64,000 bases of DNA. Origin: Antedon mediterranea (lineage: Eukaryota > Animalia > Echinodermata). The stretch lies in assembly GCF_964355755.1 (NCBI RefSeq), contig NC_092674.1, positions 20,956,001-21,020,000 on the forward strand. The letters are read 5' to 3'. A program made the position numbers and the translations under genes. Shown here piece by piece: positions 11,801 through 63,523 of the stretch (position 1 is its first letter; each line of letters starts with the position of its first letter). Under the pieces are notes generated by a model. It ran no database searches, was not told the origin of the DNA, and was given only the letters and a program-made list of their open reading frames with translations.

Positions 11801-12199
11801 TTTTGATCATGATGGAATAAAATCTTGTGACATAAGCCCTGCAATATTTACAGACCATCAGGCAATCTCAATTAAGATTGAGTTTATTGATTTAAGAAAA
11901 GGCCCTAGCTACTGGAAAATGAACAATGAACATTACAGATATTGAATATCGAAATTCTATTCGGAAAATAATTTTAAAAACACAAATAAATGAAAATAAT
12001 TTTGACCCTGAAATATTATGGGAATTAATCAAAATCAGAGTTAAGTATTCAGTATTCAGTATTCATTTATTATCCAGAAAAATACAAACAATAATACAAA
12101 AAAGCATAAATAACATAAAAACAAAAACAAGCATAGAAAAACGCAGAAAGCACTATCCTGGCAGATTGTCAAAAAGCAAAATATCGCTATAAAAGACTC

Positions 12200-15029: not shown

Positions 15030-15410
15030 CCCACATCTCCCCCTTCATTACGTAGATGTCACAATGATCTTATTTTTCTTTTTAAATGTCTTCATTTTAT
15101 TTTTGACTGCAACTTTATCTCCCATTTCGGTATTCGTGTTCCCGCCAGTAATTTAAGAAACAACCGTATCCTTTGTGTTCCCTTTTGTAGAGTCAATGTT
15201 CTAAAACATGGTTACATCAGTAGATTAAGTGTATATTATAATAGTTTAGTTTAGTTTAGGCCCATCCCCATATTGACATTTTTAAATCCAATCTTTATCT
15301 GTTTTGTCGTAATTTAAGTGTTTCTGAGTTGTTGTAATTGTATTTTATCTGTTAAACCAAGCTGTAAGTGGCGGATTTGTTTCTGATGTTGTTTCTGGTT
15401 TAAAAAAAAA
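15030..15410 (+). mobile_element. Short 3' fragment of a CR1/L2-like LINE nested in the Tx1-like element
   Basis: LRRCHNDLIFLFK...NLRN C-terminal motif, followed by 3' UTR-like sequence and an A tract. Confidence 0.5.
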
Positions 15411-17318: not shown

Positions 17319-18330
17319 GTCACGAACTCCTTTGACGTGAAATAACTCCAGAAGCTTTTTCCGAATTTAATTCGTTTTCATCTCTTAGTTTTTCTTTTCT
17401 AGCATGATCTCTAGTGTCAACTTCAGGAGTGCCTTTCACTCTTTTCTCCTGGTTGTTTCTATTTTCGTGTTTTCTATTTTGAAACTTTTTCTCAAAAAAA
17501 TGTTCTATCATCAGCTGCATCATAAGATTCTGTTGCTGCATTTGCTGTTGCATCATAAGATTCTGCTGTTGCATTTGTTGCTGCATCAACAACAAAAAAT
17601 TGTTTGAAGATGATACAGCCCCTGTAGGGTTATGTCCACTGGTTGGTCCAGACTCCTGTGTCTGTTGTTCAGGTTGTAATGACTGAACCGATTCTACATC
17701 AGAATCAGATTCATCACCACCGCTGTATTCTCTACCGGATCTTGTTGTTGATTGTTTATCAGTCTTATTTTAAATCTGGATGAGGGTCTTGTTACTAGTT
17801 AATCGTAGTTACCGAGACGTTCACAAGTCTACTGTTCCAAATAAATAATGTACTGTTCTTAAAACAATGTTTGTGTACTTACGATTAAACACAACGTAGC
17901 ACCACGGCTTCCGTAAAATATCACAGTATTGTAAGTACCGCTTCCACAAAATATCTCAATAAAAGTACAGTTGATCCTAAAACAGCCACCAATCTATCAC
18001 AAAATACAGTAGATCAAACGTACTACTACCACAAAATATCACAACAGTAGATAAAAAATAAATCCACAGTTAAGTCGAACAGTAGATCGAAATAACCGCT
18101 ACCACCAAATTATGTCGAACACCGTTGCCACCAAATTATGTCACGAACTCCTTTTACGTATGTTTCCGAGCGGTTGAAAATACTTTAGGAACTCCCTTGT
18201 GACATAAGAGTAAACACACAAAATCCACAAAGTTGTAAATTAACTCAAAACAAAGCTTTAATTCCAATCAACTTCAACTTTCAACAATCCAGTAAGCACT
18301 TTAAACAACAGCTTCACAATAACTTTTACT
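17319..18330 (-). mobile_element. LTR-retrotransposon remnant (PBS-like motifs, gag N-terminus with Gln/Met repeat)
   Basis: Minus-strand tggtggtagcggt (~18095-18107) and tggtggcaacggt (~18121-18133); TRSG motif then acidic and QQQMQQQNLMM repeats; direct repeat gtcacgaactccttt at ~17319 and ~18140. Confidence 0.5.
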
Positions 18331-18665
18331 CTTTCCGTTAAAAAATAACACCCAGATTCTTGTAGAGAATTATGTCTAACGACAAACGAGATTAAATTAT
18401 GAGTTGCAACCTAGTACCATGGGCAACTGTAACATTTTCCGTCACTTGTTCAATAAATCAGTGTTGTACTCAGCAGACACGATTTTCGATACAAAGTCCA
18501 AACATGTATATTTTACAGTAAATACAAAGTACAGACGTGGTGCATCTTTCGTACTTTTATCATAAGTGGTTTTTCTTTCCTGATTGTAGAATTAAGTTCT
18601 AGAATGTTTTTGATTACTTATGTACACATTTTTTTCTTATTATTAAGAATAAGTGATACATTGCA

Positions 18666-20894
18666 ATGGATTTGTTGAAGAAGCTAGGTTTTTTTACCTG
18701 TGTACTGGTCATTATTTACAACACTGGGAAGTATTAAATATATAATAATGGTGATTGATTCTTTCCATACACTGTGTTTTTGTGACAGCAAATGTTCTGA
18801 ATTTTGATTATCTGTTGACAAACTGGTTTGTCCAATCGCAATAGTGCTTTTGAGAACTTAGTGACAAAGATCACCCACAAACGTTATGGTGCCTCTTATA
18901 ATTTGTGTTAAAACTAAAGCAAGTAAGAAATACTCTATGGTATAATCAGTTTATGTATGAAACGAGTTATTTCATCATTTTTCACCTTAAAATCAAAGTT
19001 TCACAATACAAAAAATAATTTTTTCGTGCAACATATTAATATGTTCATTGTATTGTGATTACCTTTAGTTCAGATTTCATTGATTTTATTTTTATTGTGT
19101 GAATTTAGAGTCAAGCTTGGTTAATACATTACGCGAACATAACTGTTTTTTGTCGAACATGATGGTCCGTGATAAGAAAGACTATACTGTTAAAATGGAT
19201 CGTGTTGTTAACTCTCGTTCTGCCATTCAATGCGTCAGCTTTTGTACTCTTGACCCAACATGCGTGTCTATCAGTTTTGATGGAATTAATTCATGTTTGA
19301 TGTACAGCGTCGAAAACGGTAGTTTAGATACTGACAAAGGACAACCTACATACTACGAAATTACCAAGGTATTATGGCGTGTCCATGGGTGTTTTTCTGC
19401 TTAATAACACAAAAATATACGTGAATAACTACAACTACTATATTATAGTGTGCTACAATTACATTTCTACGTACTGATACAAAAACAATTATTTTGACAT
19501 ATTGCTCACGTACGTAGGCCTACGTTTGTACTTACACGTAACAAAATGCGTTAATGTGTCGGCCTTTTCACGCATTAAACCATAATTTACCTCCTATCAG
19601 AAACATGCCCCGTGATCTAAGCACCTGGGTTGTGGGATTGGATCCAGTTGGGTTGGTCATAGCTGGGCATTTAGGAATACCAGAGAAGAGTGAAATTATT
19701 TTAATATTTAATTAATTTCACTCTTTTCTGGGAGTACTGTTTTTGCCGTACATCCCAGATCGTTGGGTCATCTATGGATGCTGTAACTACACACACATAC
19801 AAACGTAAACATGTCTTAAAGATGTTTTTCGTTTATTTTCTCTTTTGACTTGTTGCACATCTTAATGTTGAACTTTGAAAAAATGTTATTATGCCGGCCT
19901 GGCCATTTTGAGTTTTTTTTTAGTTTTCGGTGGGCATGTATTATGCTCACAACCAACCATGACTGCGACGGCTGCGCTAAGCTGCTGTAGTATTTCTGCC
20001 ATCTTCATCATTGTCGTTTACTATTATTTATTCTTTATACTTAGATAAGAAATCATGAATGTACTGGTTACAACAACGAGGAGGTCAAATGCGTTTACCA
20101 ACATGGACATGAATGCGAAAATATGAGTAAGTTAATTACTGTCATTACACGACGAAGGGTAGAGGTTTCCGTGTTCAAACAAACATCAAATTATAAATGA
20201 TTAATGGAGGCTCGCGCTCAAAATTGTAAACTGGTCGTGCGTAATATCATTGTTTAATATCATTATCATGTTATGGTTATTTAAATTAATGCTTGGTTCA
20301 TAAGAACACCGTACATTGACCAATCACGGCGCGATGGATCCCATCTTAACTGTCGCTTCCGCTTTGTCAACTCACTTTCTTTGCGCCCATACGTCATTGG
20401 AAACCAGCTTAATTTTAGTTTTTGTTTGTTAAGTTATTACTAGTTTTATCTATTTTTTCTCTACAGTGTGCAAACAAAATGTTACAACTACAAACAACGA
20501 ATATCGTTTTGATAACCCAATATTCCAAGTAGAAACGACGACAAGGATAGAGTTCAGTGTTGTTGCTAAAAATGACGTTTACATTGCGTTATCGTCAAGT
20601 CCGGAGGTTATGACACCAATGTATGAGATTGTGATTGGTGGTTGGAAAAATACTAGATCAGTCATTCGCCGCTGTGCGCAGTGTGACAATGAGAAAATAC
20701 ATGTTGAAACTGGAATACTATCTGTGGATGAGTTTACCAAATTCTGGATATCGTTTGTAAATGAATCAATTCGTGTTGGTTTGGTAGGCAGTGACCCTTT
20801 CATTGAATGGGATGACCCGAATCCATTTCCTGTCAAATACGTTGGATTCTCCACATGGCACGGAATCAAAGGAACATTTCAATTTTGTCAATGA
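18666..20894 (+). CDS. PAN/Apple + FAMeT-like protein, copy 2 (exons 18666-18726, 19109-19368, 20045-20126, 20467-20894); intron-1 donor is GG, possible pseudogene
   Basis: Exons collinear with copy 1 and open, but 18727-18732 reads ggaagt instead of gtaagt. Confidence 0.8.
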
Positions 20895-21268
20895 AATGTT
20901 GTTTGTATTCATATTTATCTTTTTAAAATTAAGCACGGCAGTTGTAGGCTAGGCCTACTTCAATCAAAATATAAGGCACGCTAGAACAGTAGAATGATAG
21001 GCCTGCTTCTGTTTAAAGATATCAACTAACCCTGAGGTTATGTTCTTTTTTAATGTCTGCTTGCTTTGATAATTTAATTTTAAATATATATATATATTAC
21101 ATATAGATTAAATTTCTAAATGCTCATGACCTCTTACTTGTATACAATCAAATAACTCGACTATAATTCAGATCTTGTTGAGATGTTAAATGAGGGTTTT
21201 GTATACAGTATTATTGGCTGACATGGCGTTTGTTTTGTATTATTACGAACTAGCCCGAACTCTACTAT

Positions 21269-22496
21269 CCCAGCTAACAATTTAACGTTCAAATAACGTT
21301 ATTTGAATGTTATCTGTTACGTTTTTTGAATGTTACAAATTAACGTTAAGTTGACTTAAAAATGTTGACCCTTGTAAACGGTCATTGAAAGTTTTTTGTC
21401 AAGTTTGTTGAAGGTTTAAAATAAAGTTAAAATGAGGTGTTTTTATTAAAACATTCAAAAATAGTTGTTTTAATACTAAATAAGTAGCTAGCTTGATAGA
21501 TAGAATTGTACAGATGTACTGATAGTAACTGTTACTGAGCTAAGAAGATTGGCAGATGCTTGGCTTTGGTATACTCAGGCTAATACTAAAGTGGGCCAAG
21601 CGCGCCTAGAAGTACAGATGAGACAGACTAGCCAATCAAATCGTATTTTTCATGAAATAAGATCCTTCATGAGGTCTCCTTGTGAATAATGTACGTGTAT
21701 AACAACTACTGTAGGTCATAGCATAAAACTGTTTTTTTTTCTAATCTGTTGCAACATTTTAATATACTCTACTGAAAAACAGTATCTAATGTCCCATTTT
21801 TGTGAATGTCATTTTAACTTAAGATGGACGTTATCATAACAGTTCTGTTAAGTGCATCTCCTTACTTTCTATTACCGATTAAAGTTGTGTACACGGCTTG
21901 ATTCTTTCAACGTTAGATGTATGTTAATGAAAATGTTATATTTTAAGGTTCTAATTGCCGTTCTTTTCAATGTTAAGTTATCTTCTAACGTTATTGTAAA
22001 TGTTAATCGAACGTTAGATGAATGTTTATAAAGTGTTCTCTAATAGATACTTTTACATTTGATTGATACATTTTTAATGTTAATAAAAATGTTATGTACA
22101 AGTCGTATTTTAACATTTTTGTGAACGTTCTTTGTACGTTAGATAAAGGTTTTAGAAATATTTATGTATTTTAACGTTATTATAAAAAGTTAATCTAACA
22201 TTAGATGAACGTTGTTAAAAAGGTTCACCGAAAGTTACTTTTTGAACGTTATTCTGAATGTCCTTCTAATGTTCGATAAACCATTCTGTTTAAGTTAGAT
22301 TTAAAACATTATTGTGAACGTTCTTTCAACGTTAGATAAAGATTTTAGAAATAGTTATGTAACATTTCATTTTAATGTTATTATGAAAGTTAACCTAACG
22401 TTAGATGAACGTTGGTTACTGGAAGTTACTTTTGGACGTTTTTCTGAATTTCCTTCTAATGTTTGTTAAACGTTATTTTTGTATATTTTTGCTGGG
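21269..22496. mobile_element. Non-autonomous DNA transposon (CCCAGC...GCTGGG ends, many AACGTT repeats), left part
   Basis: Starts cccagctaac, contains tttgctggg at 22488-22496; absent from the paralogous 3' flank of copy 3 (~55815-55830). Confidence 0.7.
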
Positions 22497-22654
22497 AAAT
22501 AGCCAGGTGTTTTATTGACAATACTGAAGGTTTTTAATTAATATTAATTTACACATTATTATTATTATACCGTATTTCGTTCATGATACTAATTGACATT
22601 TTTATCACATCAGTAGAAAAAGAGGTACTTCAGTCAGCCTTGACCTTGATGTAT

Positions 22655-22908
22655 TTCCTGATTACGTAATATCCGCCAGGTGTTTCTAATGAAGGTCGTT
22701 CTTTTCCTGATTACGTATAGTTATGTAATTTGAAGGTCGTTTTTTTCCTGTTATTGTAATAGTTATGTAATTTCCGCCAGGTGTTTCTAATGAAGGTCGT
22801 TCTTTTCCTGGTTTCGTACTAGTTATGCAATTTCCGCCAGGTGTTTCTAATGAAGGTCGTTCTTTTCCTGGTTTCGTAATAATTATGTAATTTCCGCCAG
22901 GCGTTTCT
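22655..22908. repeat. Subterminal 60-bp tandem repeats, left end (mirrored at ~36800-37040)
   Basis: tttccgccaggtgtttctaatgaaggtcgttcttttcctg... with tttccgccag at 22771, 22831 and 22891; unit arrangement differs between the two ends. Confidence 0.9.
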
Positions 22909-22928
22909 TTGTCTCTTATTTATTAATT

Positions 22929-22965
22929 TTTGGCGCGATGTTCTGGTACGTGGTGAGTGACGTCA
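22929..22965 (+). promoter_or_regulatory. E2F-like (TTTGGCGCG) and ATF/CRE (TGACGTCA) motifs upstream of the first ORF
   Basis: Motifs at 22929-22937 and 22958-22965, conserved in the right arm; function inferred only. Confidence 0.4.
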
Positions 22966-23078
22966 TTACGTTATTTATGATTTAAGACGGTGTAACAAAG
23001 TGAAGCGGTTATTGTTGTACTATTTTCCAGTTGTTTTTGCATATTTTTGCGTAGAGTATCTCTTTTCAGTATTTCATT

Positions 23079-23633
23079 ATGTCTGGAAGTATATATTTTT
23101 CGCAAGGGAGTTGTGCAGATAATGTTATAATAATTAGCGATGATGAGGAGACTGTTGTTGTTCCAGGCAGTGATATAGATGATCGTTACACGGAGGCCGA
23201 AGAGGTTATCCCCGCCGGTATAGATGAAGGAGTCGAGAGGAGTAACAGGCCTACAAGTTGTATATTCACGTACTTGGACGAGGTGGAGAGAGAATTTATG
23301 TTGAAAATGGAGCGTTTGGTTAAACAATTGTTTGCTGCTCAAGTGTTAGCCAAGTGTTGGGTTTTAAGTAAAGCGGATTGTTATGGTTGTGAATTTGACA
23401 GGAGCAGTCAAAAAGATCATGATTTTTGTTGTATGAAGTCTCTAGAGGAACAGATTGACTATTTTTATCGGGAGGTTCTGGATAAGAAGTATGTTTCAGT
23501 CGATACCGTTTACAACGAACTAAATATGCACGGAGAATATTCATTGCCTCGGTATAGACATTTCGTTTATTTTCTTGTCAATACCCTGATTAATTCAGAG
23601 GCTATTTTTAAGCTGTTGTGCGAGGATATTTAA
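23079..23633 (+). CDS. Uncharacterised 184-aa acidic protein with SIM-like motif and Cys/His cluster
   Basis: Open ORF, more GC-rich than flanks; VIIISDDEE; CYGCEFDRSSQKDHDFCC. True start uncertain (1-nt indel between arms just after the ATG). Confidence 0.65.
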   Translation: MSGSIYFSQGSCADNVIIISDDEETVVVPGSDIDDRYTEAEEVIPAGIDEGVERSNRPTSCIFTYLDEVEREFMLKMERLVKQLFAAQVLAKCWVLSKADCYGCEFDRSSQKDHDFCCMKSLEEQIDYFYREVLDKKYVSVDTVYNELNMHGEYSLPRYRHFVYFLVNTLINSEAIFKLLCEDI

Positions 23634-23792
23634 ATTGTGTTTCGCACGTGTCACGGAAACGATTGACCGGAAATAACAATCATTATCTTTTTAATTACTG
23701 TACTGGGCTACTTCCCTACTGAGCTGCATATATATCCTGATTCAAGCGTAATCGTTCGTTTCACTCTCTGTAACTCTCTACAGTCTATAAAC

Positions 23793-25634
23793 ATGAGTTT
23801 CAACTGTTTACCTACTCCGAAATTAGCAATTGGTGAGAAAGCCCGTAGGACTATGAAAAGAGTTATGGGGAGTTCTAATGGTCAAGCTGACGAGTGTAGC
23901 AGTTTAAAATTACCAACGATGGCTTCTACATCAGCGAATATAATGGATTCTATAAAATCTTTTAACGGTCAAACAGATGAGTGTAAAGGTTTGAGTAAAG
24001 CCTCAGGAATGAGCGCCCGAGATTTTGCCGTAATGACCGATGGTGTACCAAAGATTTCCATAACTTCAAAGAATCGGATTTTCTTGTCTGAAAAACGCCA
24101 TGTAGTGGCCCAGCGATGGGGTGACGATGTTTATGTTTGTCTCAGAGAGTATTACCAAACGGAAGAATATGGTGCCTTCAAACCTGGACCTCTAGGTATT
24201 AATTTACCCGTTCTGCTGTGGCAAAAACTTTTCAACAATATTGATTTAATTATTCAGTCACTGGAAGACTTACAAAGAGACATTAACATGGTGGAGGCAG
24301 TAAGAATCCCCCTTTCGGACATAATTCATGTGGTAGTTAGTAACTGGAAAGAAGAACAATTTGTGTGTATTCGTCGCTATTACCAGTCTGAAGAAGGAGG
24401 AAAGTTTAAACCCGGTAAACAAGGTGTAAACCTTCCAAAGAGTCAGTGGTTCAAGTTAATTGAAAAACACGGTGAAATACAAAAGATGATTGAGGAGGTT
24501 GGTAATGATAATGCAGCTACTGTTGAAGGAGGTGTTGACAAAAACGTTAATGGAGGACGTTTATTCAATTCAGAACATCATTTGCTACCTCCTGATAAGT
24601 TATCGGTGCAAAAGATAATAGGGGAAAATTTAGACTGTGATTACCTTCAACTTCTTGATAAAGGAGCAGCCGATACATTGTTTAAAAAATGTGAGGAAGA
24701 GATTGACTATTTTACCGGTGATTTTGCAAAGGTGAAAGTGTATGGAAAGTGGTTTAATATTCCTAGAAAACAGGTTAGTTCCATTATGTTTTTATCCGTG
24801 GTTTTGTATTAATGACTTGTTAATTACTTGTATATCGTTTCCTTTGTTTTTCTTTATTTACCGCTGTGTAGCTATAGGTGTAATTTACTCTTTTACTGTA
24901 AATTATTTTATTTAGGCGTGTTCATTTACATCTCGCCAAATAATAAATGACTTTCTTTGTATGGTTTCCTCTCTGCAGGTTTCGTTTGGCGATGCAGGCT
25001 TAACTTACAAATATTCAGGCAATACAGTACCAGCTTTACCGTGGCCACCATTCCTGAAAGATCTCCGCGACCTTTTAAAATCGGTTACAGGACATTACTT
25101 CAATTTTGTTTTGGTCAACCGGTAAATATTCTTGTTTATTATTTTATTTATTTATTTTTTTTTATTGATTAAAAGGGTCTATAGTTTACCTCTAAAACGA
25201 TTGAACATTATCAGTATTCATACTGGATGATTTCTGCAATTTGTTAGATAAGATTGTTTTAATGGATAATTGGGGTTTTTTTTAGTCTCATCTTAAAATA
25301 TCTTATTTTCTATTGTATTTTGTCGTTACTCTATAGATATGCTACTGGAAGTGATTACATTGGCGAACACAAAGATGATGAGAAAGACATGGATCACTTT
25401 AGTTCAATCGCCTCTGTATCATTGGGGCAAACACGTATGTTTAGATTTCGACATGGTGATGCGCGAGGTAAGAGTCCCAAAAGAATCATTGAGCCAGTAA
25501 CTGTTGATCTTAAACACGGTACATTATTAATGATGAATTATCCCACTAATGAGTACTGGTACCATTCACTGCCTAAAAATCAATCCATCAAGCTACCAAG
25601 AATAAATCTCACGTTTAGAGATATTAAAAGATGA
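23793..25634 (+). CDS. Tandem PC4 (Sub1-type ssDNA-binding) domains fused to an ALKBH2-like 2OG-Fe(II) dioxygenase (473 aa; exons 23793-24773, 24979-25121, 25337-25634)
   Basis: PC4 repeats VCLREYY...KPGPLGINL...WQKL and VCIRRYY...KPGKQGVNL...QWFKL; ALKBH2 motifs VYGKWFNIPRKQ|VSFGDAGLTYKYSG, FNFVLVNR|Y, IGEHKDDE, YHSLP, RINLTFR; GT-AG introns in phase 0 and 2. Confidence 0.9.
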
Positions 25635-25964
25635 GAGAAATGTTACGCAAACATTACAGTCTTTAATAGTGATTGCAGATCTCAAGAATATCAACTGTTC
25701 ATGATCTGTTCTCATTTAGTATAGTAGTACCAGTTGAATTATTTTTGTGATGATATTCCTACAAATGGTTGTATTATTGTATTGAAGTTAATTCACTTAG
25801 ATTTTGGCCTAATTCCATTGATCGTTAATAATCATGTGATTGTTTGACATTGTGTGGATAATGATTAACTTTACGAATAATTTCTTAAAAGTAACTTGTA
25901 ATGTATTTCTAATTGTTAAATACAATTTTTTATGTTTTTAATAAGTGTGTAAGTTTTTCTTTAA

Positions 25965-27092
25965 AATGGACCTGAAATGGATTTTCGATTTTTTTCATTT
26001 TAGAATGATGTTTTGGGGGCTATTAGGTGTTGCTAGAATGTATATTGTTACAAAATATAAATTGGCCCTTTTGGGGAAAGCCCCATTTGAAAATCAAAAG
26101 AATTCGCGGGTGACATCACTTTGCGAATATATTCCTATCCCTCCAATGGACAATTTGCAGTTTTTTGGCTATAACTCTTGAAATCTATGGAGTATTTTCT
26201 AAAAAATGCTTGTGCATATGCAGAAACGTATTTAGAATTTTTTTAGATAAAATTATTACCGTATAAACGGTTATTCATCGAGTAAATGACGATTTAAAAT
26301 CTTAAAATCAACGTTTTTTTCTGGCAATACCGAAGTTGGCCTGGCAACGTTGTCCGGGATACAGCTCCGTGCGCAATGATGCGTATCCATATTTTCCGTT
26401 CGTGTATTTTGTATATCGTTCGTAATTTATACTGCTAAAATGTGTTAGTTTCTTTAGTTTTTAGTTTAGCAGAATTAAATTAGTAATATGAGATGATAAT
26501 TTATTTGTCACAAATCAGGCAGTTCGAAAACGAATTTTATTCATATTTTACTTTGGCTTGACAATGAGCGTAGCACGTTGTTGATATCGCTTTGGTCCTT
26601 GGATGCACATGAAACGGAGCCTCGCCGCATGATGTGGGTGGTGGATCGACTCCGCGCGCTGGATTGGGGGCCTAGGCCTAGTAAAGGTTTGGGAGGTAGG
26701 CCTTCTAAATTCGGGTTTTAGAACAAACGAAGTACATTTTAGGGACCTATATTTCAACAACATTAGATATTGAATAAATTAGTATTAGTGTCAACGCTTC
26801 GCGTATCTTTCCAGGCCGTCGATCATTCACTGACTTTCGGGCGGCATACACGCTCTCGATATCATCGTGTGTATATGTGACGTCGTGAATATAGAGGCTT
26901 CCGACGGCCGTTGAAATAGAATATTGCAATGGCGTGAGTAATTTTCGCTAATTTACCATGGTATCTTAAAATTTCGTTTTTACTCAAAATACTATACATT
27001 TTGTTTTTATTTGTATGGGTTTGTGTTAATTTGATACATTTAAATAACATGTGTGAATTTCTTGAAAATCGAAATTCCATTTCAGGTCCATT
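25965..27092. mobile_element. MITE with TTAA target duplication (Kolobok-like ends)
   Basis: ~30-bp TIR aatggacctgaaatggattttcgatt / aatcgaaattccatttcaggtccatt; TTAA at 25961-25964 and 27093-27096. Confidence 0.8.
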
Positions 27093-30000
27093 TTAAAGCA
27101 TTTTAATCGTAATTTCAAGAGTAATATGTACTTGTAACGTTTGAACCGGACTGGTAGATTAAACAAAAAAAAAACAAAAACAACAAAAACAAAACACGTT
27201 ATAATAACACTAATAATAGCACATATTTTCGTACATGTATCAATGATTTATCTACATATGTGTGATTAATATTATTACAATAAAGACCATGTACATCTAC
27301 GATATTTTTACTGTAAGTGGTATTGTAAATAAAAATTATGAATTCAATCGTGAGAAATTACCGATATCTGTGTATTATTTTATATTACTTTTATCATAAT
27401 TGCAACAAAAAAAAAAAATTCAGAGAAATCATAATTATCGAATACAGAAAGACGTTTTGGTTACCAATTGTATTTCTTGACACTTAATACATTTTAACAG
27501 AAAACAAGACCTTCAACCGGAGCCAAAAGTGGAAATTTGTTTACGTGCAGGTTATTGCCATTAGATATTCTTAGAACTACTTTGGTTTTTATAAATATTG
27601 TCACTTTTTTTCTACACGTTTATCTACCGAGATTTTGTTTTCCTTTTTATGAATCTTCCGTTGTTCATAAGCATTATTAATTTTTACAGGCCTTGTTCTT
27701 CGCTTTGCAGGCTAAATCTTATAACGGCATAGGCCTACATTTTAACGGTTCTTTGTAAATATCCTCTTATTGATTGTTACCTTTAGTTCTCTGAATGTTT
27801 TAATTTACCGTAGATGATGAAAAAATCCATTAATCTAGCACCATTTAATAAAAAAAAGGTTCCGCAGTAAATGGTTTATTTTTGATGGTATTGATGGAAT
27901 CATCGAGGCACAATATTAGGCTGAAAAACATGACGTCACTATTTTAAACGGTTTATCATACAAGAACAATTAACCAATCACAAAACTGAGCTACTGATTT
28001 GCGTAGAAGTTTCTGGAAATGACAAATTAAGGAAACACGTACACATTAATAAATATATATTAATTTTTATATAAATAATAGACAAAACAAAAGGAAATAC
28101 ACCAAACAAATCATTTTCGTTATGAATTTATAATAACTTTAAATTTTGTCCATCACAGGAGACGCGTTTTCCAATTGTAAAACAGTTTCGCATTGCGTCG
28201 CAACACATGCACATACTGCAAGTACCGTACCGTACTGTAACAAGTCTACTGATATGTATTTTGTTGGTCACTCATCATTTTAGCCAACACATTATTTAAC
28301 TCATCAGGTGTAATATCTTTTCACAAATCCTTTATATCTTTACTTTTTCTTGACAACTCATAACAAACAAGAATAGTACTCTGAATGAGTGTGGGAGAGG
28401 TGTGTGGGAGTCCCATTCAACTAAACCTTGCCAATTTGTACTCGACCTACGATAAAACCATTTTTTAAAAGTCAACATAGCGACGCGAGAAAAAATTGAT
28501 AATAGGGATAAAAAGTTTTTCTTGCATTGTTATACAGTAATCTATGTTTTTCGGTGTTTACACCATCTCATTGTTTATAATTACGTTTGTTAATATCGAT
28601 AGTGTTTCTCTAGCAGAGTTATATTACTTGTTTATACTCGTATAGTTTGCAGCCCTCCATGTTGTTCGTATATTTTGTAAAAAGTGTACTTATGATTACT
28701 TTTAAAAACCAACTCATTTTATTTGCATTTTATCTACACCTCATGGTTAAAATGTGTTGTTTTTCATAGAGTGTGATGCTGCTTAAAACGTTATACTAGT
28801 ATAACCACCAAAACGGTTTATTATCTGTAGGAAATCATCAATTGTAACATGCGGTAAACAATACAAATTAGTTTCACAAATTATTAAAAAATAGCACAAT
28901 TGTTACAAATGAATTTAAGAAAATAAAGGTGTACAGATTTTATTTCGAAAAAGTGTAGGCCTAGACCTACAAAGATAATTTTACATAAAGTGTACAGAAT
29001 AAATTAACAAAAAAAGGTCACACATACATTAAACTAATTCTTATAAAAGTGTGTACAGTGTAGGCCTACTTTGGTTATCAGGTATATCAACTTTAGTATT
29101 TTAAGTATAGGGCCTATTTGTGGCAAACACACGGTTCCTTTTAATTGTGGGTAGAGGCCTTTTGCCGTTCGTAATTCAAACTGTTCGTAAAATTGAAGTT
29201 AATATTCTGAGATTAGGCCTATAGCCTATGATTGCAGCTTATACTAGTCAACGGTCTAAAAGAGCTGTATTGCAGGATGCGAAACATAAAAGTTCAATAA
29301 TAAACAGTATATTATAACGATAAAGAAACGAATGTACGATACACCAATATAGCAATACAATAACTGATTAACTGAAAACTTGAAGTCTACTGTATTCCTA
29401 CAATCATTCAAGTAGACATTGTTTGCTGAGTGTATGGTACTTTCTCCAAAGAGAATTCGAACGATGGGCTTTCGGACGTGTTTCTACGGTTATCAGAACG
29501 GGTCGATAATGAAAAAAAAAAAACAAACAAACAAACTGCCTACTAACTCCCAAAAAATCAATACCTATAAATAAGCTGAACCTACCCCACTAAATAATCT
29601 CTTCCATACATCAAAATCGACCGAAAATGATCTGGACATTGAAAAGTGGACACGGTCGTCTGTTCTTCTTTTCTGTTTCCACGGCTTGGGACGACATCCC
29701 TGCTAGTGATGTACGGTAGCCATGCGGTCTACACACTTATGATGACCACATCGCATAACATGTTCAGGGAACTTATTTTTCAACTCTCTGATACAATGTT
29801 TAAATACAAGTAGACTGGAAACCATTTAGGAACAGGGGTTTCTAATAATAAAAGTTGTTTAAAACTTTAGTTATTGTCAAGGGGAATTGTTCAAGACTTG
29901 GAGTAAAATGGTCAAGACCGGGGGAAAATGGTCAAGACCGGAAGAAAATTAAATTTCACCATTTTATAAGTTTATAGTCATTTATTGTGTTAAAATTCAT

Positions 30001-30125
30001 TTATTATTAGACCTGTATACGTATTCAATAACAAAAAATAACTTTGTTACATTAATAACATATCTTTAGTGGTTAAGGTAATATATTATTTCTCTGTATA
30101 CTGACGTCACAAATATAGATAAAGA

Positions 30126-30421
30126 GAGACTGTAACTAAATGTTTATTACTTATTAGGGTTACAGGGAGAGTTCCATACAGCATTAAAAGGTCAATTAAT
30201 GAGCCACCCAACTTAATTAAGTACCGGTACTTAACAAATGTGCTCAAACTCAATAAGGGTTACAAATCTACAAGAGACTGTAACTAAATGTTTATTACTT
30301 ATTAGGGTTACAGGGAGAGTTCCATGCAACATTAAAAGGTCAATTAATGAGCCACCCAACTTAATTAAGTACCGGTACTTAACAAATGTGCTCAAACTCA
30401 ATAAGGGTTACAAATCTACAA
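30126..30421. repeat. 148-bp tandem repeat x2 next to the palindrome centre (mirrored at 30793-31088)
   Basis: gagactgtaactaaatg... starts at 30126 and 30274; each unit contains the 18-bp palindrome ttaagtaccggtacttaa. Confidence 0.95.
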
Positions 30422-30574
30422 AAGAGAACATTTTATTTTTAAACCAGGGTTAAACATTAAAAGGTCAATTACTTGAACTCTGAACATGGGAAAAATACTT
30501 GTGTCAATTGACACTTGAACTTGACATCTATACAAGGACGAATAGACTGTGACAATTAACCATGACCTCTGGTC

Positions 30575-30639
30575 CCAAAAGCATGGGGGTTTCAGTTTTC
30601 GACTTCGTCGAAATTTGAGAGCCCCCCAATAAAACGGCT
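30575..30639. other. 65-bp imperfect hairpin at the axis of the giant palindrome
   Basis: Core tttcgac-ttc-gtcgaaa (30597-30613), extended by tttcag/ttgaga (G-T pairs) and tggggg/ccccca, with mismatched bases further out. Confidence 0.85.
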
Positions 30640-32368
30640 GACCAGAGGTCATGGTTAATTGTCACAGTCTATTCGTCCTTGTATAGATGTCAAGTTCAAG
30701 TGTCAATTGACACAAGTATTTTTCCCATGTTCAGAGTTCAAGTAATTGACCTTTTAATGTTTAACCCTGGTTTAAAAATAAAATGTCCTCTTTTGTAGAT
30801 TTGTAACCCTTATTGAGTTTGAGCACATTTGTTAAGTACCGGTACTTAATTAGGTTGGGTGGCTCATTAATTGACCTTTTAATGTTGCATGGAACTCTCC
30901 CTGTAACCCTAATAAGTAATAAACATTTAGTTACAGTCTCTTGTAGATTTGTAACCCTTATTGAGTTTGAGCACATTTGTTAAGTACCGGTACTTAATTA
31001 AGTTGGGTGGCTCATTAATTGACCTTTTAATGCTGTATGGAACTCTCCCTGTAACCCTAATAAGTAATAAACATTTAGTTACAGTCTCTCTTTATCTATA
31101 TTTGTGACGTCAGTATACAGAGAAATAATATATTACCTTAACCACTAAAGATATGTTATTAATGTAACAAAGTTATTTTTTGTTATTGAATACGTATACA
31201 GGTCTAATAATAAATGAATTTTAACACAATAAATGACTATAAACTTATAAAATGGTGAAATTTAATTTTCTTCCGGTCTTGACCATTTTCCCCCGGTCTT
31301 GACCATTTTTACTCCAAGTCTTGAACAATTCCCCTTGACAATAACTAAAGTTTTAAACAACTTCTATTATTAGAAACCCCTGTTCCTAAATGGTTTCCAG
31401 TCTACTTGTATTTAAACATTGTATCAGAGAGTTGAAAAATAAGTTCCCTGAACATGTTATGCGATGTGGTCATCATAAGTGTGTAGACCGCATGGCTACC
31501 GTACATCACTAGCAGGGATGTCGTCCCAAGCCGTGGAAACAGAAAAGAAGAACAGACGACCGTGTCCACTTTTCAATGTCCAGATCATTTTCGGTCGATT
31601 TTGATGTATGGAAGAGATTATTTAGTGGGGTAGGTTCAGCTTATTTATAGGTATTGATTTTTTGGGAGTTAGTAGGCAGTTTGTTTGTTTTTTTTTTGTT
31701 TTTTTTTTCATTATCGACCCGTTCTGATAACCGTAGAAACACGTCCGAAAGCCCATCGTTCGAATTCTCTTTGGAGAAAGTACCATACACTCAGCAAACA
31801 ATGTCTACTTGAATGATTGTAGGAATACAGTAGACTTCAAGTTTTCAGTTAATCAGTTATTGTATTGCTATATTGGTGTATCGTACATTCGTTTCTTTAT
31901 CGTTATAATATACTGTTTATTAATGAACTTTTATGTTTAGCATCCTGCAATACAGCTCTTTTAGACCGTTGACTAGTATAAGCTGCAATCATAGGCTATA
32001 GGCCTAATCTCAGAATATTAACTTCAATTTTACGAACAGTTTGAATTACGAACGGCAAAAGGCCTCTACCCACAATTAAAAGGAACCGTGTGTTTGCCAC
32101 AAATAGGCCCTATACTTAAAATACTAAAGTTGATATACCTGATAACCAAAGTACACTGTACACTTTTATAAGAATTAGTTTAATGTATGTGTGACCTTTT
32201 TTTGTTAATTTATTCTGTACACTTTATGTAAAATTATCTTTGTAGGTCTAGGTCTACACTTTTTCGAAATAAAATCTGTACACCTTTATTTTCTTAAATT
32301 CATTTGTAACATTTGTGCTATTTTTTAATAATTTGTGAAACTAATTTGTATTGTTTACCGCATGTTAC

Positions 32369-35300
32369 CAGTGGGACAGCCAGTCGACAAATCGTGTCAA
32401 ATTTCGACTCGGAGAGGGCGCCCTACTTTTATAATTTAGTTCAAAATTGCTAAATTTTAGGGTGTTGGAAAAACACAATATTTGTATATTTAGCTGATTA
32501 TCGGAAAAATATTGTTAGTGAAATAAATTCATAAATGGTTTTAATATATTGTCGTGTAAAATTAAATGTATTTGAACAAAACGATAATCTGTAATTTAAC
32601 GGCAAAATCAACCAATGTCTTTTTTCCGAAATTGTACCCTAGAAAATCGTTAAAATAAAATATTTAGAAAAATTGAACAATCCTGAATTTAAAATCCCTG
32701 TTAGAAAAATTAATAAGCTACAGAATACGATATTAAGATACAAAATTCGGTGGTTGGGATGCAGCTCCGACTATTCAAACTAAAGGTACCACTATTTGTT
32801 CCATCGAAAACTAGCGAAACCGCCATTTTGTAAACACATCGTCATCGTGTTTATGAATTTATTTATAGCGAACGATATACGCGATGTTTATTTATATTGT
32901 CCGCGTATAAGAATTCATATAAATAAATACATTCCAATACAACGTATATTATTACTTGTTTATTTATCACAGTATACATTTTAGTTGAGGAATATTTATC
33001 ATAACTATTATAATAGCTTTTATACGAGTCCGAGGCCTAGCCCTATTAGCGAGCGATTGTTCCAGGGGCGGAAAGTCACTTAGTGACGTTGTGATCGGGC
33101 GCGTCGGGCCTAGCTAATATTAATAATATGACCTGAAATAACCGGCTAACAAGAACTGTTATATACTTGCTTACAATTGTTTTGTTATTGATGAACAAAC
33201 AAGCAATTAGATTGAATAACAAATTACTTATTCATTTTTTTTAGGTAAAAACATGTACAAACTAGTACTCTATAATATAAATTAATAGTAATATTAAACT
33301 AATACAGTATTAATAAAATATAAAATAGGCCTAACATACAATAAATATTCAATTTTTAAGGTCTACCACATGGCAATAACATAATTTACAGAGTATAGTG
33401 TAGTAGGTTTGCATTTAACATAAATATTTGTATTGTAATTCATCTAAATCCTCTGCAACATACATATATTTGTAATTCAACATTTTGTTTTAAATAATTA
33501 AATTATAGTTTGGGTATGACAACGTCGGTAGGTACCGGTGTCATCTTTTTATCCAGTTCACTCTCAGTTTGAAGTCACAAAGACAAAGAACTCTGCATCA
33601 TCAACGATTCCTGAAAGTGTCAGAAAAAATAATAAATATTATTTAAAAAAAATGTTAATGTCAAATGGAAGCTGTATTTTATTAATTAATAATAATATTA
33701 CAGTATTTGCTATTATTATTTATAATAATCTAGGCCTACTTGTAGCCTAGCTAGGCACCTATTGAGCCTAATAAATCAAATAATAAATGAAAAATAAAAT
33801 AATAATATTAATACTGATTGAAAAAAAGTATTTTTTTGGGGGGGATCAGATCACCAGGCTAGGCCGGCCGCGATTTTTTTTTTCGTACATAAGTTGGGGA
33901 CCCCTCATGAAACGTCACAAAATAAACATGAATAATTCATCAGTTAAATTTGTTGTTCCGTGTGCACCCAAGCGTATTGCAACAAGAAGTGATTACACAA
34001 CTGCGATACGATACTTTCTACAGTAGGCCTAGGATTCTAAGTTAATTCACGTGCCGCCGATGCCTTCGCGCACTCTTCTTCACACAAAATGTCGAGTCGA
34101 GGCTAATCGACAGCTAGGCAAGACATTAAACTAAGTAGTAATTCATTGGACATAGCCCAAAGAAAGTTTAGACCCACAAGAATAAAGAATGTGTATAATT
34201 TGTGTACTGTATTTTTATAATTCTGCTATTTTATTATCAAACAATATGCATGTACTCAAATGAACTTTAAAAATGCGCGTATATGAACACATGAGATGGG
34301 AAGATTTGACCCACTAGAATAAAAAATGTATTTTTGTGTAATGTTTATTGTTTAATTTTGCTGACTTATTACTCAGATTGTGTCATACCAAACACACACA
34401 CGTCACACACACCCACACAGCTACTACTAGTGTACTAGATATAGACATGGGTTTAGAGACTAATAATTAGGCCTAATAGTATTAATAGAAACTATAATTT
34501 TAACACGTATTCTTTAGTAATAAATTATATTAAAAACACCATAAACTAAAGGCTGATTATTTCGACAATCCACACAAAACGCCGCTATTCTTCTATGAAA
34601 TCGCACGCCGCAACAACAGCGGAGACAGGCCTAGAATCGTACCGCACTTGTGTAATCACTCTTGTTGCTATACGCTTGGAACACGGAACAAGAAAATTTA
34701 ACTGATGAATTATTCATGTATATTTTGTGACGTTTCATGAGGGGGTCCCCAACTTATGTACGAAAAAAAAAATCGCAGGCCGGCCTGGACCAATGATACT
34801 CGTAATCAGTACAACTTAACGACTATCGGATCAGCATCAACACAGTACAACACACGTCTCGCTATCGCCTATACTGACACACGTGTCTCGCGTTGCCGAA
34901 ACCACGCTCACAGCTAGAAAATGTACCTACCTTTCGAGGCCTGAGAATACACCAACAAATTTTGAACAGCATAGAAATATATCATACTCGATTAAACTAA
35001 TATTATTCTTGATAAAACAATTGATTATAATTGTTTTAATTTGTTGGGATGCACCTCCGACTATTCAGAAAATGGACAACAAAACAGTAGTCAAATCGTA
35101 CCACATTTATAAATTTCACGAGTCCCGACTTCAGTCGCCGAATGTATTGTATTAGCTTCGGTTTCTTTGAAGGAAACCGATTGGTTATTCAATTATACTT
35201 ATTAGGAAATGCTTTTACCATAATAGGTAATGTTGGGCGGTTCTTAAATATTCATGAGAGCTTAAAAAAAAACAGCACTTATTTGCTAGGCGACGAAAAA

Positions 35301-35407
35301 TCGTGGTTTCAGTTTTCAACGATAGGTGGCGCTTCAAAATCGTCAATGCGGAAGTAAGTCGATTTTACACGATTTAACGGTCAAAACGCGAAGTGGCTTT
35401 CCCACTG
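32369..35407. mobile_element. 3.0-kb non-autonomous DNA transposon in the right arm only; CAGTGGG ends, 4-bp TTAC duplication
   Basis: Left arm gives the empty site (caattgtaacatgcgg, ~28839-28854); TTAC at 32365-32368 and 35408-35411; TIR cagtggga(c/a)agcca. Confidence 0.85.
33861..34787. mobile_element. Nested MITE-like segment with ~150-bp inverted repeats
   Basis: 33861-~34012 is the reverse complement of ~34636-34787 (cgtacataagttggggacccc / ggggtccccaacttatgtacg). Confidence 0.7.
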
Positions 35408-35615
35408 TTACAATTGATGATTTCCTACAGATAATAAACCGTTTTGGTGGTTATACTAGTATAACGTTTTAAGCAGCATCACACTCTATGAAAAACAACA
35501 CATTTTAACCATGAGGTGTAGATAAAATGCAAATAAAATGAGTTGGTTTTTAAAAGTAATCATAAGTACACTTTTTACAAAATATACGAACAACATGGAG
35601 GACTGCAAACTATAC

Positions 35616-35636
35616 CAGTGGCGGATCTAGGGGGGG
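35616..35636 (+). mobile_element. Isolated hAT-like MITE terminus at a deletion breakpoint
   Basis: cagtggcggatctaggggggg replaces ~490 bp present in the left arm (28147-28639). Confidence 0.5.
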
Positions 35637-36027
35637 TGAAATTTAAATTTATTATAAATTCATAACGAAAATGATTTGTTTGGTGTATTTCCTTTTGTTT
35701 TGTCTATTATTTATATAAAAATTAATATATATTTATTAATGTGTACGTGTTTCCTTAATTTGTCATTTCCAGAAACTTCTACGCAAATCAGTAGCTCAGT
35801 TTTGTGATTGGTTAATTGTTCTTGTATGATAAACCGTTTAAAATAATGACGTCATGTTTTTCAGCCTAATATTGTGCCTCGATGATTCCATCAATACCAT
35901 AAAAAATAAACCATTTACTGCGGAACCTTTTTTTTTTTTAAATAGTGCTAGATTAAGGGATTTTTTCATCATCTACGGTAAATTAAAACATTCAGAGAAC
36001 TAAAGGTAACAATCAATAAGAGGATAT

Positions 36028-36630
36028 TTACAAAGAACCGTTAAAATGTAGGCCTATGCCGTTATAAGATTTAGCCTGCAAAGCGAAGAACAACAGCTTA
36101 AAAATAGCCTCTGAATTAATCAGGGTATTGACAAGAAAATAAACGAAATGTCTATACCGAGGCAATGAATATTCTCCGTGCATATTTAGTTCGTTGTAAA
36201 CGGTATCGACTGAAACATACTTCTTATCCAAAACCTCCCGATAAAAATAGTCAATCTGTTCTTCTAGAGACTTCATACAACAAAAATCATGATCTTTTTG
36301 ACTGTTCCTGTCAAATTCACAACCATAACAAGCCGCTTTACTTAAAACCCAACACTTGGCTAACACTTGAGCAGCAAACAATTGTTTAACCAAACGCTCC
36401 ATTTTCAACATAAATTCTCTCTCCACCTCGTCCACGTACGTGAATATACAACTTGTAGGCCTGTTACTCCTCTCGACTCCTTCATCTATACCGGCGGGGA
36501 TAACCTCTTCGGCCTCCGTGTAACGATCATCTATATCACTGCCTGGAACAACAACAGTCTCCTCATCATCGCTAATTATTATAACATTATCTGCACAACT
36601 CCCTTGCGAAAATATATACTTCCAGACATA
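36028..36630 (-). CDS. Right-arm copy of the 184-aa ORF with an altered C-terminus at the 4.1-kb indel junction
   Basis: Nearly identical to 23079-23619 (YL/YV, AD/AA, RS/RN differences); ends FKLLFFALQ... instead of FKLLCEDI; 1-nt shorter T tract puts the ATG out of frame. Confidence 0.55.
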   Translation of the reverse strand, partial: YVWKYIFSQGSCADNVIIISDDEETVVVPGSDIDDRYTEAEEVIPAGIDEGVERSNRPTSCIFTYVDEVEREFMLKMERLVKQLFAAQVLAKCWVLSKAACYGCEFDRNSQKDHDFCCMKSLEEQIDYFYREVLDKKYVSVDTVYNELNMHGEYSLPRYRHFVYFLVNTLINSEAIFKLLFFALQAKSYNGIGLHFNGSL

Positions 36631-37589
36631 ATGAAATACTGAAAAGAGATACTCTACGCAAAAATAGGCAAAAACAACTGGAAAATAGTACAACAATAAC
36701 CGCTTCACTTTGTTACACCGTCTTAAATCATAAATAACGTAATGACGTCACTCACCACGTACCAGAACATCGCGCCAAAAATTAATAAATAAGAGACAAA
36801 GAAACACCTGGCGGAAATTACATAATTATTACGAAACCAGGAAAAGAACGACCTTCATTAGAAACACCTGGCGGAAATTACATAACTATTACAATAACAG
36901 GAAAAGAACGACCTTCATTAGAAACACCTGGCGGAAATTACATAACTATACGTAATCAGGAAAAGAACGACCTTCATTAGAAACACCTGGCGGAAACGAC
37001 CTTCATTAGAAACACCTGGCGGATATTACGTAATCAGGAAATACATCAAGGTCAAGGCTGACTGAAGTACCTCTTTTTCTACTCACATCTAATATAATCT
37101 AATTATCGAAGCCGAATAAAAATAAAAATATATATTAAAACTACGAAATTGTGCTTGCTCAGAGAATTATTAATTTTCAGAACTAGTGAACGGAAATTAC
37201 TAATAATAATATTATATGCGTACCGGTATTAATGTGTATTATACAATTGTTGTTATAATGAAGAGTTTTATTAAAGAATCGAAGTATAATAAATGTATAC
37301 ATTAATTAATGAATATTACACTATGCCAATTTATACTTAAAAATACAACGATGTACTTTTTTTTATGAAAAAAAATATACACGTCACTTACTTTACTCTT
37401 TTAATGTAAAAGAGTGAAAAACCAAATGCTTCACTCTTTAATACCACTTTTTAAAAGGATGACATTCACTCTAAAAGAAGGAATTTTGGTTCTTTTTAAT
37501 TTGGAATATTCTGGTTCAATTGAAGTTTAGCACTGTAGCATTAGAATAGATATGGATACGGTAATTAAATACTTAAAGTAGCATTACAT

Positions 37590-37954
37590 TTTAATATTAT
37601 TATGAAAGTTAATCTAACGTTAGATGAACGTTGTTAAAAAGGTTCACTCAAAATTACTTTTGAAAGTTATTCTGAATGTCCTTCTAATGTTTGATAAACG
37701 TTATTAAAAACGTTCTGTTTAAGTTATATTTAAACATTATTGTTAACGGTTTTTGAACGATAGATAAACGTTATTAAGACAAGTTATTTAATTTTATATT
37801 TGAACGTTTCTATAAACGTACCCTCAACGTTAAAATAATGTCAAACAACGTTTTTTGAATGAACGTTATTCGAACGTCACTTGAACGTCCGTAGTGAACC
37901 TGAACAAACAACTGCCAAACACTAACGTTAGATAAACGTTATATGTTTGCCGAG
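37590..37954. mobile_element. Right part of the AACGTT-rich non-autonomous DNA transposon
   Basis: Similar to ~22170-22470; ends gtttgccgag followed by TA, after which homology to the copy-3 flank resumes. Confidence 0.7.
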
Positions 37955-41822: not shown

Positions 41823-42888
41823 TGTAATTGGACCAGGGGAGCCGGGACGCCCTCTATACCAATGAGTATAACCAAGGAACACAAACACTTGAGTACGGGT
41901 ACTTCTTTGTCTTTATTCCAAAGCGGTAAAATTGCAAACAAACATAATCGATACATAGTCTAGTCACAAACATCATGAATAAAATGATTAATGGATTTAT
42001 ATAGTAAATATGTCAGAATGGTGAAATATTAAATTCTCTACAAACAGAGATTATCAACTGTTTGCAAACTTCAATTTCTTACAATAAAGTTTAGCGTTAC
42101 GCATAACACACTTCAGTTACATCAAAACTGACTGACATTTAACCTACGAACAATCGAATGTAAACATAATAACTGATTATTACAAATAAACTTACAGAGT
42201 GTGACTCAACATAATACGGAATCAATCTGAGGAAGCTTCGGGAAGCAAATCACTTGGATAAATTTAAAATGTCTAAAAAGAAACATATTATCACTAAATA
42301 ATAACGTTGGTAAACACCGCCCTCAATCTCTAAACTAACTCATAAATATTCATGACTAAGAAAAATCGGCGAGTGGAGGTCCTTTAGCAGAAGCTATAAA
42401 TGACCAGAAACTAAGAAAATTATACGATTAAATTATAACCTTCTAGTGCTTAAAATATATATGGATAAACGCTAGTTGTATTTTAGGCTTAACATACGGC
42501 ATACAGTGCTAACATATGGCATACAACGTTAACATAGGTGTACATTCTTCGTTAACGGGAAGCTCGAAACAACGACGAGCCACACCTTGTCATCCTCGTG
42601 GTAACATGTTGGACCAAAGATCCATAAAATTCTTCTAATATAATAAGTAACAGCTAACAAAATAACAACTATCAGATTCTAAGGTAAAAACATAACTACT
42701 ATAATATAGGTTCCGAAACTCACCAGAAAACATTAAAACGGTGATAAACACAGGTAACTTTGCATCTTAAAGATACATCTTTCAAAGATGACTAACTTGT
42801 TAAAAAGAAAGTAACCTTGCGGTAGAGCTAACCTTAGTTGACCCCAGAGGGCACTACGATCAATAAAACTCTTCAAACAGACAGCACA
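41823..42888 (-). repeat. 3' LTR of BEL/Pao element
   Basis: Direct repeat of 49002-50053. Confidence 0.92.
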
Positions 42889-43151
42889 CTCCCTCCAGTG
42901 ATGACCGCATCATCACTAAAAATGATCGTACCAAGTTACATGAGGGACAACAAAACATAAAACAAGCGCTACTGACTTAACATAAGTAGACCCTTACTTG
43001 CTACAACCATTAATAACATGAGATATTAAGATACAATTGTATTACTGTATTATTATTAAGCTACCTTTAACTTATTGTTATTAAAAACCATTATTTAACT
43101 AAAACTACAAAAAATGCATTATCTGTTGTAATGCTAACAAAGTCCTCCAAG

Positions 43152-48970: not shown

Positions 48971-49001
48971 CGTAGAATCAGTACTGTGATACTCTTTTTA
49001 C

Positions 49002-58432: not shown

Positions 58433-63523
<5,091 letters not shown>

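Follow-up and report, generated by a model that had tools for sequence, protein, structure and literature searches.

A multi-copy palindromic element with Polinton-type ends and a PC4-PC4-ALKBH2 gene in Antedon mediterranea

We analyzed a stretch of 64,000 nucleotides from Antedon mediterranea (here called the window; contig NC_092674.1, positions 20,956,001 to 21,020,000 of the forward strand), which contains a giant palindrome with Polinton-type ends. The palindrome is best explained as a decayed copy of a multi-copy palindromic element, a non-autonomous satellite that would be copied from one arm around a hairpin and integrated by Polinton enzymes acting in trans; we put the probability of this explanation at roughly 0.6.

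Boundaries and architecture of the palindrome

Self-comparison of the window delimits an element of 14,472 bp (22612-37083) with ends AGTAG...CTACT. It is flanked on both sides by the direct repeat CACATC; at 6 bp, and at no other length, this repeat is perfect (random 6-mers taken in pairs from the flanks would match by chance in 0.05% of cases). The terminal hexamer AGTAGA...TCTACT has 5 of the 6 bases of (AGT)2, and Polintons are described as having 6-bp duplications and (AGT)2 or (AG)3 ends (PMC8097293). Between the arms lies a centre of 65 bp (30575-30639). Ends, duplication and centre are as described in a first-pass annotation made from the sequence alone, which had also proposed a left arm of ∼6.8 kb and, if symmetric, an ancestor of ∼13.7 kb. 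Without its nested miniature inverted-repeat transposable element (MITE) the left arm indeed measures 6,831 bp, which gives ∼13.7 kb for a symmetric form.

The further proposal that the arms are reverse complements all the way to the centre is correct for four paired blocks, 22612-23619 with 37083-36090 (96.4% identity), 27680-28146 with 36105-35639 (97.7%), 28636-28849 with 35619-35406 (99.1%) and 28844-30574 with 32368-30640 (97.9%), but the arm-specific insertions and deletions are large, and only ∼3.4 kb of each arm pairs (left arm 7,963 bp, right arm 6,444 bp), or ∼47% of the element. Blocks of 4.1 kb and 0.5 kb are confined to the left arm, and a nested insertion of 3.0 kb to the right. 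The first 69 bp are identical between the arms, and 19 substitutions were counted per 3,130 aligned bases (0.6%). A 148-bp tandem duplication in the left arm (30125-30425) is mirrored in the right arm, including two changes between the units. The right arm has a 4.1-kb deletion with 4-bp microhomology, which cuts its open reading frame 1 (ORF1) near the 3' end and removes the PC4-PC4-ALKBH2 gene. For the terminal 89 bases, folding is no more stable than in shuffled sequences (z -0.08), and an Rfam search gave no match.

The features are listed below. X1, X5, X6 and X7 are public sequencing runs, P0015 is an annotated protein of 473 amino acids (aa) related to the element gene, and P0006 is a host ALKBH2 record.

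22606-22611, + strand: left target-site duplication CACATC; a 507-bp X1 contig (22183-22679) crosses the junction
22612-23619, + strand: left terminal block; contains the AGTAG end, ORF1 and, at 22690-22908, subterminal tandem repeats of 41 and 60 bp
23079-23633, + strand: ORF1, 184 aa
23793-24773, + strand: PC4-PC4-ALKBH2 exon 1, 327 codons, with both PC4 domains and the start of the AlkB domain (PF02229 twice, E 2.4e-23; 97.2% identity to P0015)
24979-25121, + strand: PC4-PC4-ALKBH2 exon 2, preceded by a 205-bp GT-AG intron (46/47 residues as in P0015)
25337-25634, + strand: PC4-PC4-ALKBH2 exon 3, preceded by a 215-bp GT-AG intron (PF13532, E 1.5e-19; 95/98 residues as in P0015, 82/98 as in host P0006)
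25959-27098, no strand: nested high-copy MITE with 34-bp inverted ends, missing from other element copies (contigs of X1, X5 and X6 skip 1,132 bp)
27099-30574, + strand: inner left arm, non-coding; long contigs of X1, X5 and X6 cover it, and the 148-bp tandem duplication occupies 30125-30425
30575-30639, no strand: 65-bp centre, imperfect hairpin, common to the family
30640-32368, - strand: inner right arm, mirroring 28844-30574, also with the 148-bp duplication
32369-35407, no strand: right-only nested insertion of ∼3.0 kb with 7-bp inverted ends and a 4-bp duplication; a MITE-like element lies inside it at 33861-34786
35408-36093, - strand: right-arm remnants of the inner arm; 35602-35648 replaces left 28137-28653
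36090-37083, - strand: right terminal block with the second ORF1 copy and the CTACT end
37084-37089, + strand: right target-site duplication CACATC

The MITE in the left arm has a depth 10-50 times that of the element and ends that fit a TTAA-type target; it may be Kolobok-like. The right-only insertion is non-coding and contains a 25-bp direct repeat spaced 2,290 bp.

A family of copies with a common centre

Evidence for a family was taken from short-read contigs of the public runs (X1 from organism A, which may be the source of the window, X6 and X7 from organism B), in which contig depth is not a copy number. The inner arm is partly present in 11 runs from 6 studies, and 5 of these runs hold at least half of its words. 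The centre was examined in X1, X5, X6 and X7. In X6 and X7 it is found in one 131-bp contig each, consisting of the centre and 31 arm bases on either side, and in X1 it is covered by two overlapping exact contigs (depth 179 and 211, with flanking contigs at 25 and 33). In X5 a single arm adjoins the centre, and the opposite side carries a deletion.

A diverged second centre subtype was detected in X1 and X7. In X7, 29 of the 30 letters on one flank are reverse-complementary to the other flank, and the two flanks have six changes relative to the window in common (compared by eye). Copies with arm deletions beside the centre were also seen in X5 (depth 16) and X6 (depth 132). The presence of the centre in two organisms, in subtypes and in many copies agrees with the mobile family suggested in the first-pass annotation; the centre is not unique to this locus, the contrary case named there, and recurs with both arms attached in the organism B runs.

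A fold-back chimera of the assembly or library, or a one-off inverted duplication of the chromosome, is scarcely credible for the element, even though giant palindromes are a known type of artefact and no single short-read contig spans the whole of it. The arms differ by the 19 substitutions, by deletions and by nested insertions, the target-site duplication is perfect at both ends, and the centre is spanned in other samples and in a second organism. For the family this explanation is refuted, because two centre types occur in one run and in two organisms.

The left arm is the better guide to the family. Contigs in the left form cross left-only blocks in X5 (23289-23667 and 27489-27869), in both X5 and X6 (∼28091-28870) and in X6 (27264-28118). 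Because contigs cross these blocks and skip the MITE, the left arm without the MITE (6,831 bp) represents the family form, and the right arm has probably decayed by deletion and insertion after integration. Loose contig ends in X1 and X6 at 22629-22872 correspond to related termini that diverge past the first 20-60 bp and are candidates for other subfamilies or for a helper.

Hairpin centre and copying between the arms

An imperfect hairpin forms when the centre is folded, its stem measuring 7 bp and its tip 3 nt (z ∼-2.5 on both strands; 3 of 200 shuffled sequences folded as well and 197 worse). A fold-back tip had been expected from the first pass and is present, as this short-stemmed hairpin and not as an open loop.

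Family-variable sites suggest that the two arms have not evolved separately. We considered 23 sites, namely the best-supported rows displayed, within paired blocks, at which high-depth contigs carry another letter. The right arm carries the allele of the left arm at 19 of them. The 148-bp duplication region exists in a single-unit form in X6, and its duplication, mirrored with the internal changes, calls for whole-arm copying or long-patch repair. Common alleles, mirrored duplication and mirrored subtype changes together indicate that the arms were copied from one another, as the first-pass annotation supposed.

The same observations can be accommodated by a satellite that is copied over its whole length from the two ends each time, in the manner of an ordinary Polinton whose inverted repeats are giant, with the arms levelled in the folded-back displaced strand by mismatch repair or gene conversion and without a half-molecule. 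We regard this as unlikely, though the least unlikely of the alternatives. It explains the ends, the duplication, the common centre and the mirrored alleles equally well, and the persistence of the copies with deletions beside the centre (one-sided in X5, and at the depths given above in X5 and X6) is in its favor. It has to call on whole-arm copying or long-patch repair for the mirrored 148-bp duplication, however, and a tight hairpin tip kept in two diverged subtypes is not required by it.

ORF1 and the relationship to Polintons

ORF1 sits in the terminal block of both arms. Its product has an acidic N-terminus and the motif C-x-G-C-x6-Q-x2-H-x2-C, and its predicted structure contains an all-helical domain (predicted local distance difference test score 87.9). 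The model found no Foldseek match at E ≤0.001, and the best Z of 6.9 may reflect a common helical arrangement. No match was obtained in a word-indexed protein search, in NCBIfam or in Atlas, and the best Pfam match had an E-value of 0.023. Scans of viral contigs for ORF1, ORF1 alignments and the PC4 pair detected no relative. A C-terminal LxCxD word near a CxxC pair recalls the 'Oncoid' genes of PMC8502044, but is not LxCxE.

An exhaustive search identified 24 distant relatives of ORF1, one of them from another crinoid, with six invariant residues (C, G, C, Q, H, C). In two unnamed proteins among the ORF1 homologues, PC4 is fused to the ORF1 domain. A metagenome scan with an alignment of 8 relatives then yielded 19 loci, and in 10 of the 19 a Polinton core gene lies near the ORF1 homologue: an integrase in L002, L007, L012, L013 and L017, an A32-like ATPase in L002, L007 and L018, a polymerase B in L005, and an adenovirus-type protease in L001, L002, L004, L007 and L010. 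As L001/L002 are one element and L012/L013 another, ∼8 independent elements stand behind the 10 loci. Major and minor capsid genes may also be present in L002, L007 and L010, to judge from position and known motifs; Pfam and NCBIfam do not name them and they were excluded from the count. At L019:3430-3480 there is a short match to the cysteine-histidine motif of ORF1.

A profile built from 18 loci (L019 and the window protein were left out) matches the two ORF1 copies (E 1.8e-14 and 6e-14) and nothing else among 1,054 frames of the window. Because of the neighbourhoods and this exclusive match, we consider ORF1 a member of a Polinton accessory gene family. The Polinton origin proposed in the first pass from ends and 6-bp duplication is now also supported by ORF1, evidence of descent from Polintons that does not depend on the ends.

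A fold-back element of another superfamily with 6-bp duplications (e.g. IS3EU or Ginger) that has acquired Polinton genes is very improbable. Its end hexamer is indeed not the exact vertebrate motif, but the ends are AG...CT with AGTAG, and ORF1 lies within the terminal block and is tied to Polinton neighbourhoods.

Absence of Polinton core genes

The element falls outside the autonomous Polintons. No frame in it has the size of pPolB, the best match being E 0.075 (to L005 fragments). Integrase was not found at E-values up to 1 with a profile of six locus frames, nor by Pfam. Among 102 frame pieces of the element, the best E-values were 0.28 for ATPase and 0.034 for minor capsid, with no match for protease or major capsid, and Pfam found no match in 62 short interior frames.

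The first-pass annotation had reported that no pPolB, integrase, ATPase or capsid frame was visible, and long frames, Pfam and profiles bear this out, with the protease likewise not found. Its account of the content as lacking replication and capsid genes stands, but it had overlooked ORF1 in both arms as well as a spliced gene in the left arm.

The PC4-PC4-ALKBH2 gene

This second gene, present in the left arm only, has its coding sequence in three exons, with GT-AG introns between them, and its product combines two PC4 domains with an AlkB domain. Identity to P0015 is 97-98% in every exon. P0015 matches human ALKBH2 structures (E 9e-71) with metal and 2-oxoglutarate motifs retained, and in the element gene the HxD...H triad and R-x5-R motif of the 2-oxoglutarate-Fe(II) domain are intact. 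PC4 is a single-strand DNA binder, and ALKBH2 removes 1-methyl-A and 3-methyl-C, lesions that form mainly in single-stranded DNA.

Including that of the window, 17 distinct PC4/AlkB proteins are found on 7 contigs of 22-41 Mb, and a host-type ALKBH2 of 268 aa on an eighth contig. The host-type protein has two records, P0006 and P0022, on one contig and one residue apart, a recent or haplotype duplicate. In 4 cases, two PC4/AlkB proteins on the same contig are identical or differ by one residue; such pairs could be two arms or isoforms. The catalytic motifs are kept in 13 of 13 full-length annotated copies checked and lost in one C-terminally altered copy.

In a tree of 19 AlkB domain rows (proteins without the full domain were left out), the 13 rows from elements cluster with the host 268-aa ALKBH2 (100/100) relative to the sea-urchin and sea-star orthologues. 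The AlkB domain is 83% identical to that of the host. Between two protein subfamilies, identity is 97% in this domain and 85% in the PC4 part. Matches of the PC4 domains to human and fungal PC4 are weak (E ∼2e-5), and they also match an unnamed protein, P0007 (58% across 65 residues). These relationships suggest that a mobile-type PC4 gene would have taken up the host ALKBH2 at the DNA level, introns included.

Proposed cycle and evidence on both sides

In the cycle that we propose, a helper Polinton would supply the terminal-protein-primed polymerase and the integrase. The replicating unit would be one ∼6.8-kb arm closed by the hairpin tip, arising when the palindrome is resolved or folds at its centre. 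Copying from the open end around the tip would yield a head-to-head dimer with identical arms and two integrase ends. After insertion the arms would decay apart, so that their divergence might date a copy, as in pairs of long terminal repeats (LTRs). More speculatively, the PC4-PC4-ALKBH2 protein might bind the displaced strand and remove 1-methyl-A and 3-methyl-C that would otherwise end up in the refolded duplex.

Arms without differences, a tip that is conserved and two integrase ends would follow most simply from this hairpin-closed, single-arm cycle, and full-length replication with levelling of the arms in the folded-back strand fits nearly as well. By sequence alone the half-molecule step cannot be told from a full-length element with repair-levelled arms. 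For the helper-dependent snap-back satellite envisaged in the first-pass annotation, the Polinton origin, the missing core genes, the mobile family and the copied arms have held up, while the half-molecule step is not singled out.

Several observations weigh against copying around a hairpin by a Polinton helper, or against parts of that explanation. The sixth terminal base deviates from AGTAGT, and the 6-bp duplication is known from a single locus. The right arm has the other allele at 4 of the 23 family-variable sites, which are the best-supported rows and not all sites. Nine of the 19 metagenome loci have no core gene near the ORF1 homologue: L014 adjoins a PC4 gene, L019 is a parvovirus-like contig (NS1, PF01057), and the other 7 are short and lack a named neighbour. 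The database protein for the PC4-PC4-ALKBH2 locus, P0019, is an unspliced record of 339 aa without most of the AlkB domain, so that we infer splicing at this locus. The near-identical proteins on the same contig are possibly isoforms, and copies on separate contigs may differ by just 2 of 238 residues. Monophyly of the element AlkB copies is weak (69/44), and the 19 variants shown in ORF1 and exon 1 (9 synonymous, 10 non-synonymous) give no clear sign of selection. Finally, when depth is summed, ORF1 and exon 1 exceed the inner arm ∼2-5-fold in X1 and X5; with an outer gene block of greater depth, many of the copies that carry the genes may differ in their interior or be complete Polintons.

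This last point would be expected if the arm were the accessory end of an autonomous host Polinton, the palindromes being dead-end products of template switching at a preferred site and most PC4-ALKBH2 copies residing in full Polintons. Accessory regions flank the core in vertebrate Mavericks (PMC8097293), and phi29 reportedly produces subgenomic molecules by site-specific template switching (attributed to Murthy, 1998). We nevertheless consider this origin improbable, more so than full-length replication. The 3.5 kb of inner arm have no trace of a core gene, a centre found in two organisms, in subtypes with co-evolved arms, requires descent as a palindrome, and the near-identical protein pairs on the same contig suit copies with two arms.

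Polintons have so far mainly been characterized in silico, as described in 10.1101/2023.08.22.554363, and the replication model is therefore largely untested. Three things are to be expected of a palindromic satellite family: arms that are identical at the time of insertion, conservation of the hairpin tip, and a hairpin of half length in free form. Somewhat doubtful, and offered tentatively, is the broader view that animal Polintons support a standing class of hairpin satellites, and that this lineage has fused a captured ALKBH2 to two mobile-type PC4 domains and spreads the product, two copies to an element, to repair the intermediate formed when it replicates by folding back. On that view, a satellite of a virus-like transposon would have acquired an adaptation for DNA repair, and would offer a natural probe of Polinton replication. 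The family adds a gene tie to Polintons that is independent of the ends. It also contains a near-complete host repair gene in at least 17 protein-coding copies, which studies of gene families would misread as an expansion of ALKBH2.

Surroundings of the element

The window is animal DNA, with 33% GC, introns and elements of the long interspersed nuclear element (LINE) and BEL/Pao types, and its closest named proteins come from Antedon mediterranea (up to 97% identity). Three related copies of a host gene with PAN and Methyltransf_FA domain exons (80-85% identity) are located at 5100-8840, 18300-21270 and 52760-55820, and the element is inserted between the second and the third. One AT-rich host repeat is found on both flanks (21983-22477 and 37567-37832; 70-83%); the landing site is repeat-rich. 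Two LINE-type reverse transcriptase remnants lie at 2782-4854 and ∼11300-16234. A BEL/Pao LTR retrotransposon with broken frames occupies 41823-50053 on the minus strand (LTRs of ∼1,067 bp, 97.2% identity), and an exon of an ATP-binding cassette (ABC) transporter is found at 62918-63214, also on the minus strand.

Comparison with known systems

Repbase includes non-autonomous Polinton entries. Literature searches, which did not extend to Repbase reports or to Kapitonov and Jurka 2006, gave no paper about palindromic Polinton derivatives or about PC4 or AlkB in Polintons, and term look-ups within four papers were likewise blank.

The element is like Polintons/Mavericks in its AG...CT ends, 6-bp duplication, size (range 13-25 kb) and accessory gene family near the end (PMC8097293, PMC8502044, PMC6431247, 10.1101/2023.08.22.554363), and differs from them in having no pPolB, integrase, ATPase, protease or capsid genes. 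Terminal inverted repeats are present in both, but here they are far longer, extending over ∼6.8 kb to the 65-bp centre versus 46-1,447 bp in vertebrate Mavericks (PMC8097293). Its host gene bears introns, whereas intact Maverick core genes are described as intronless (PMC8097293, PMC8502044, PMC6431247, 10.1101/2023.08.22.554363).

Capture of host genes is also known from Pack-MULEs (Mutator-like elements); these mostly carry fragments (PMC6431247), whereas the captured gene here is near-complete, in frame and fused to mobile-type PC4 domains. Both domains of the encoded protein are known, and it is their fusion that sets it apart.

Foldback elements (Drosophila FB, Galileo) resemble the element in their very long inverted arms with subterminal tandem repeats and in being non-autonomous, but its ends and duplication are of the Polinton type. 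FB and Galileo have duplications of 7-9 bp and P-element/MULE-type ends, and the duplication here, perfect only at 6 bp, does not fit this type.

Protein-primed replicons reportedly give rise to hairpin, duplex and template-switch derivatives. A parallel in mode of replication is offered by their hairpin or palindromic derivatives, reportedly including a kalilo deletion derivative (attributed to Vierula and Bertrand, 1992) and a yeast hairpin plasmid (attributed to Kikuchi, 1985), next to which the phi29 subgenomic molecules may be placed. As in these derivatives, one terminal origin is kept, core genes are lost, the molecule folds back and it would depend on a helper; the centre can form a tip, and the arms appear mutually copied. 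The known derivatives are free molecules from culture, whereas the element sits in the chromosome with a target-site duplication, is inherited, has had time to split into subtypes and bears cargo. By this analogy, it would behave as a hairpin derivative of a protein-primed replicon and depend on a helper.

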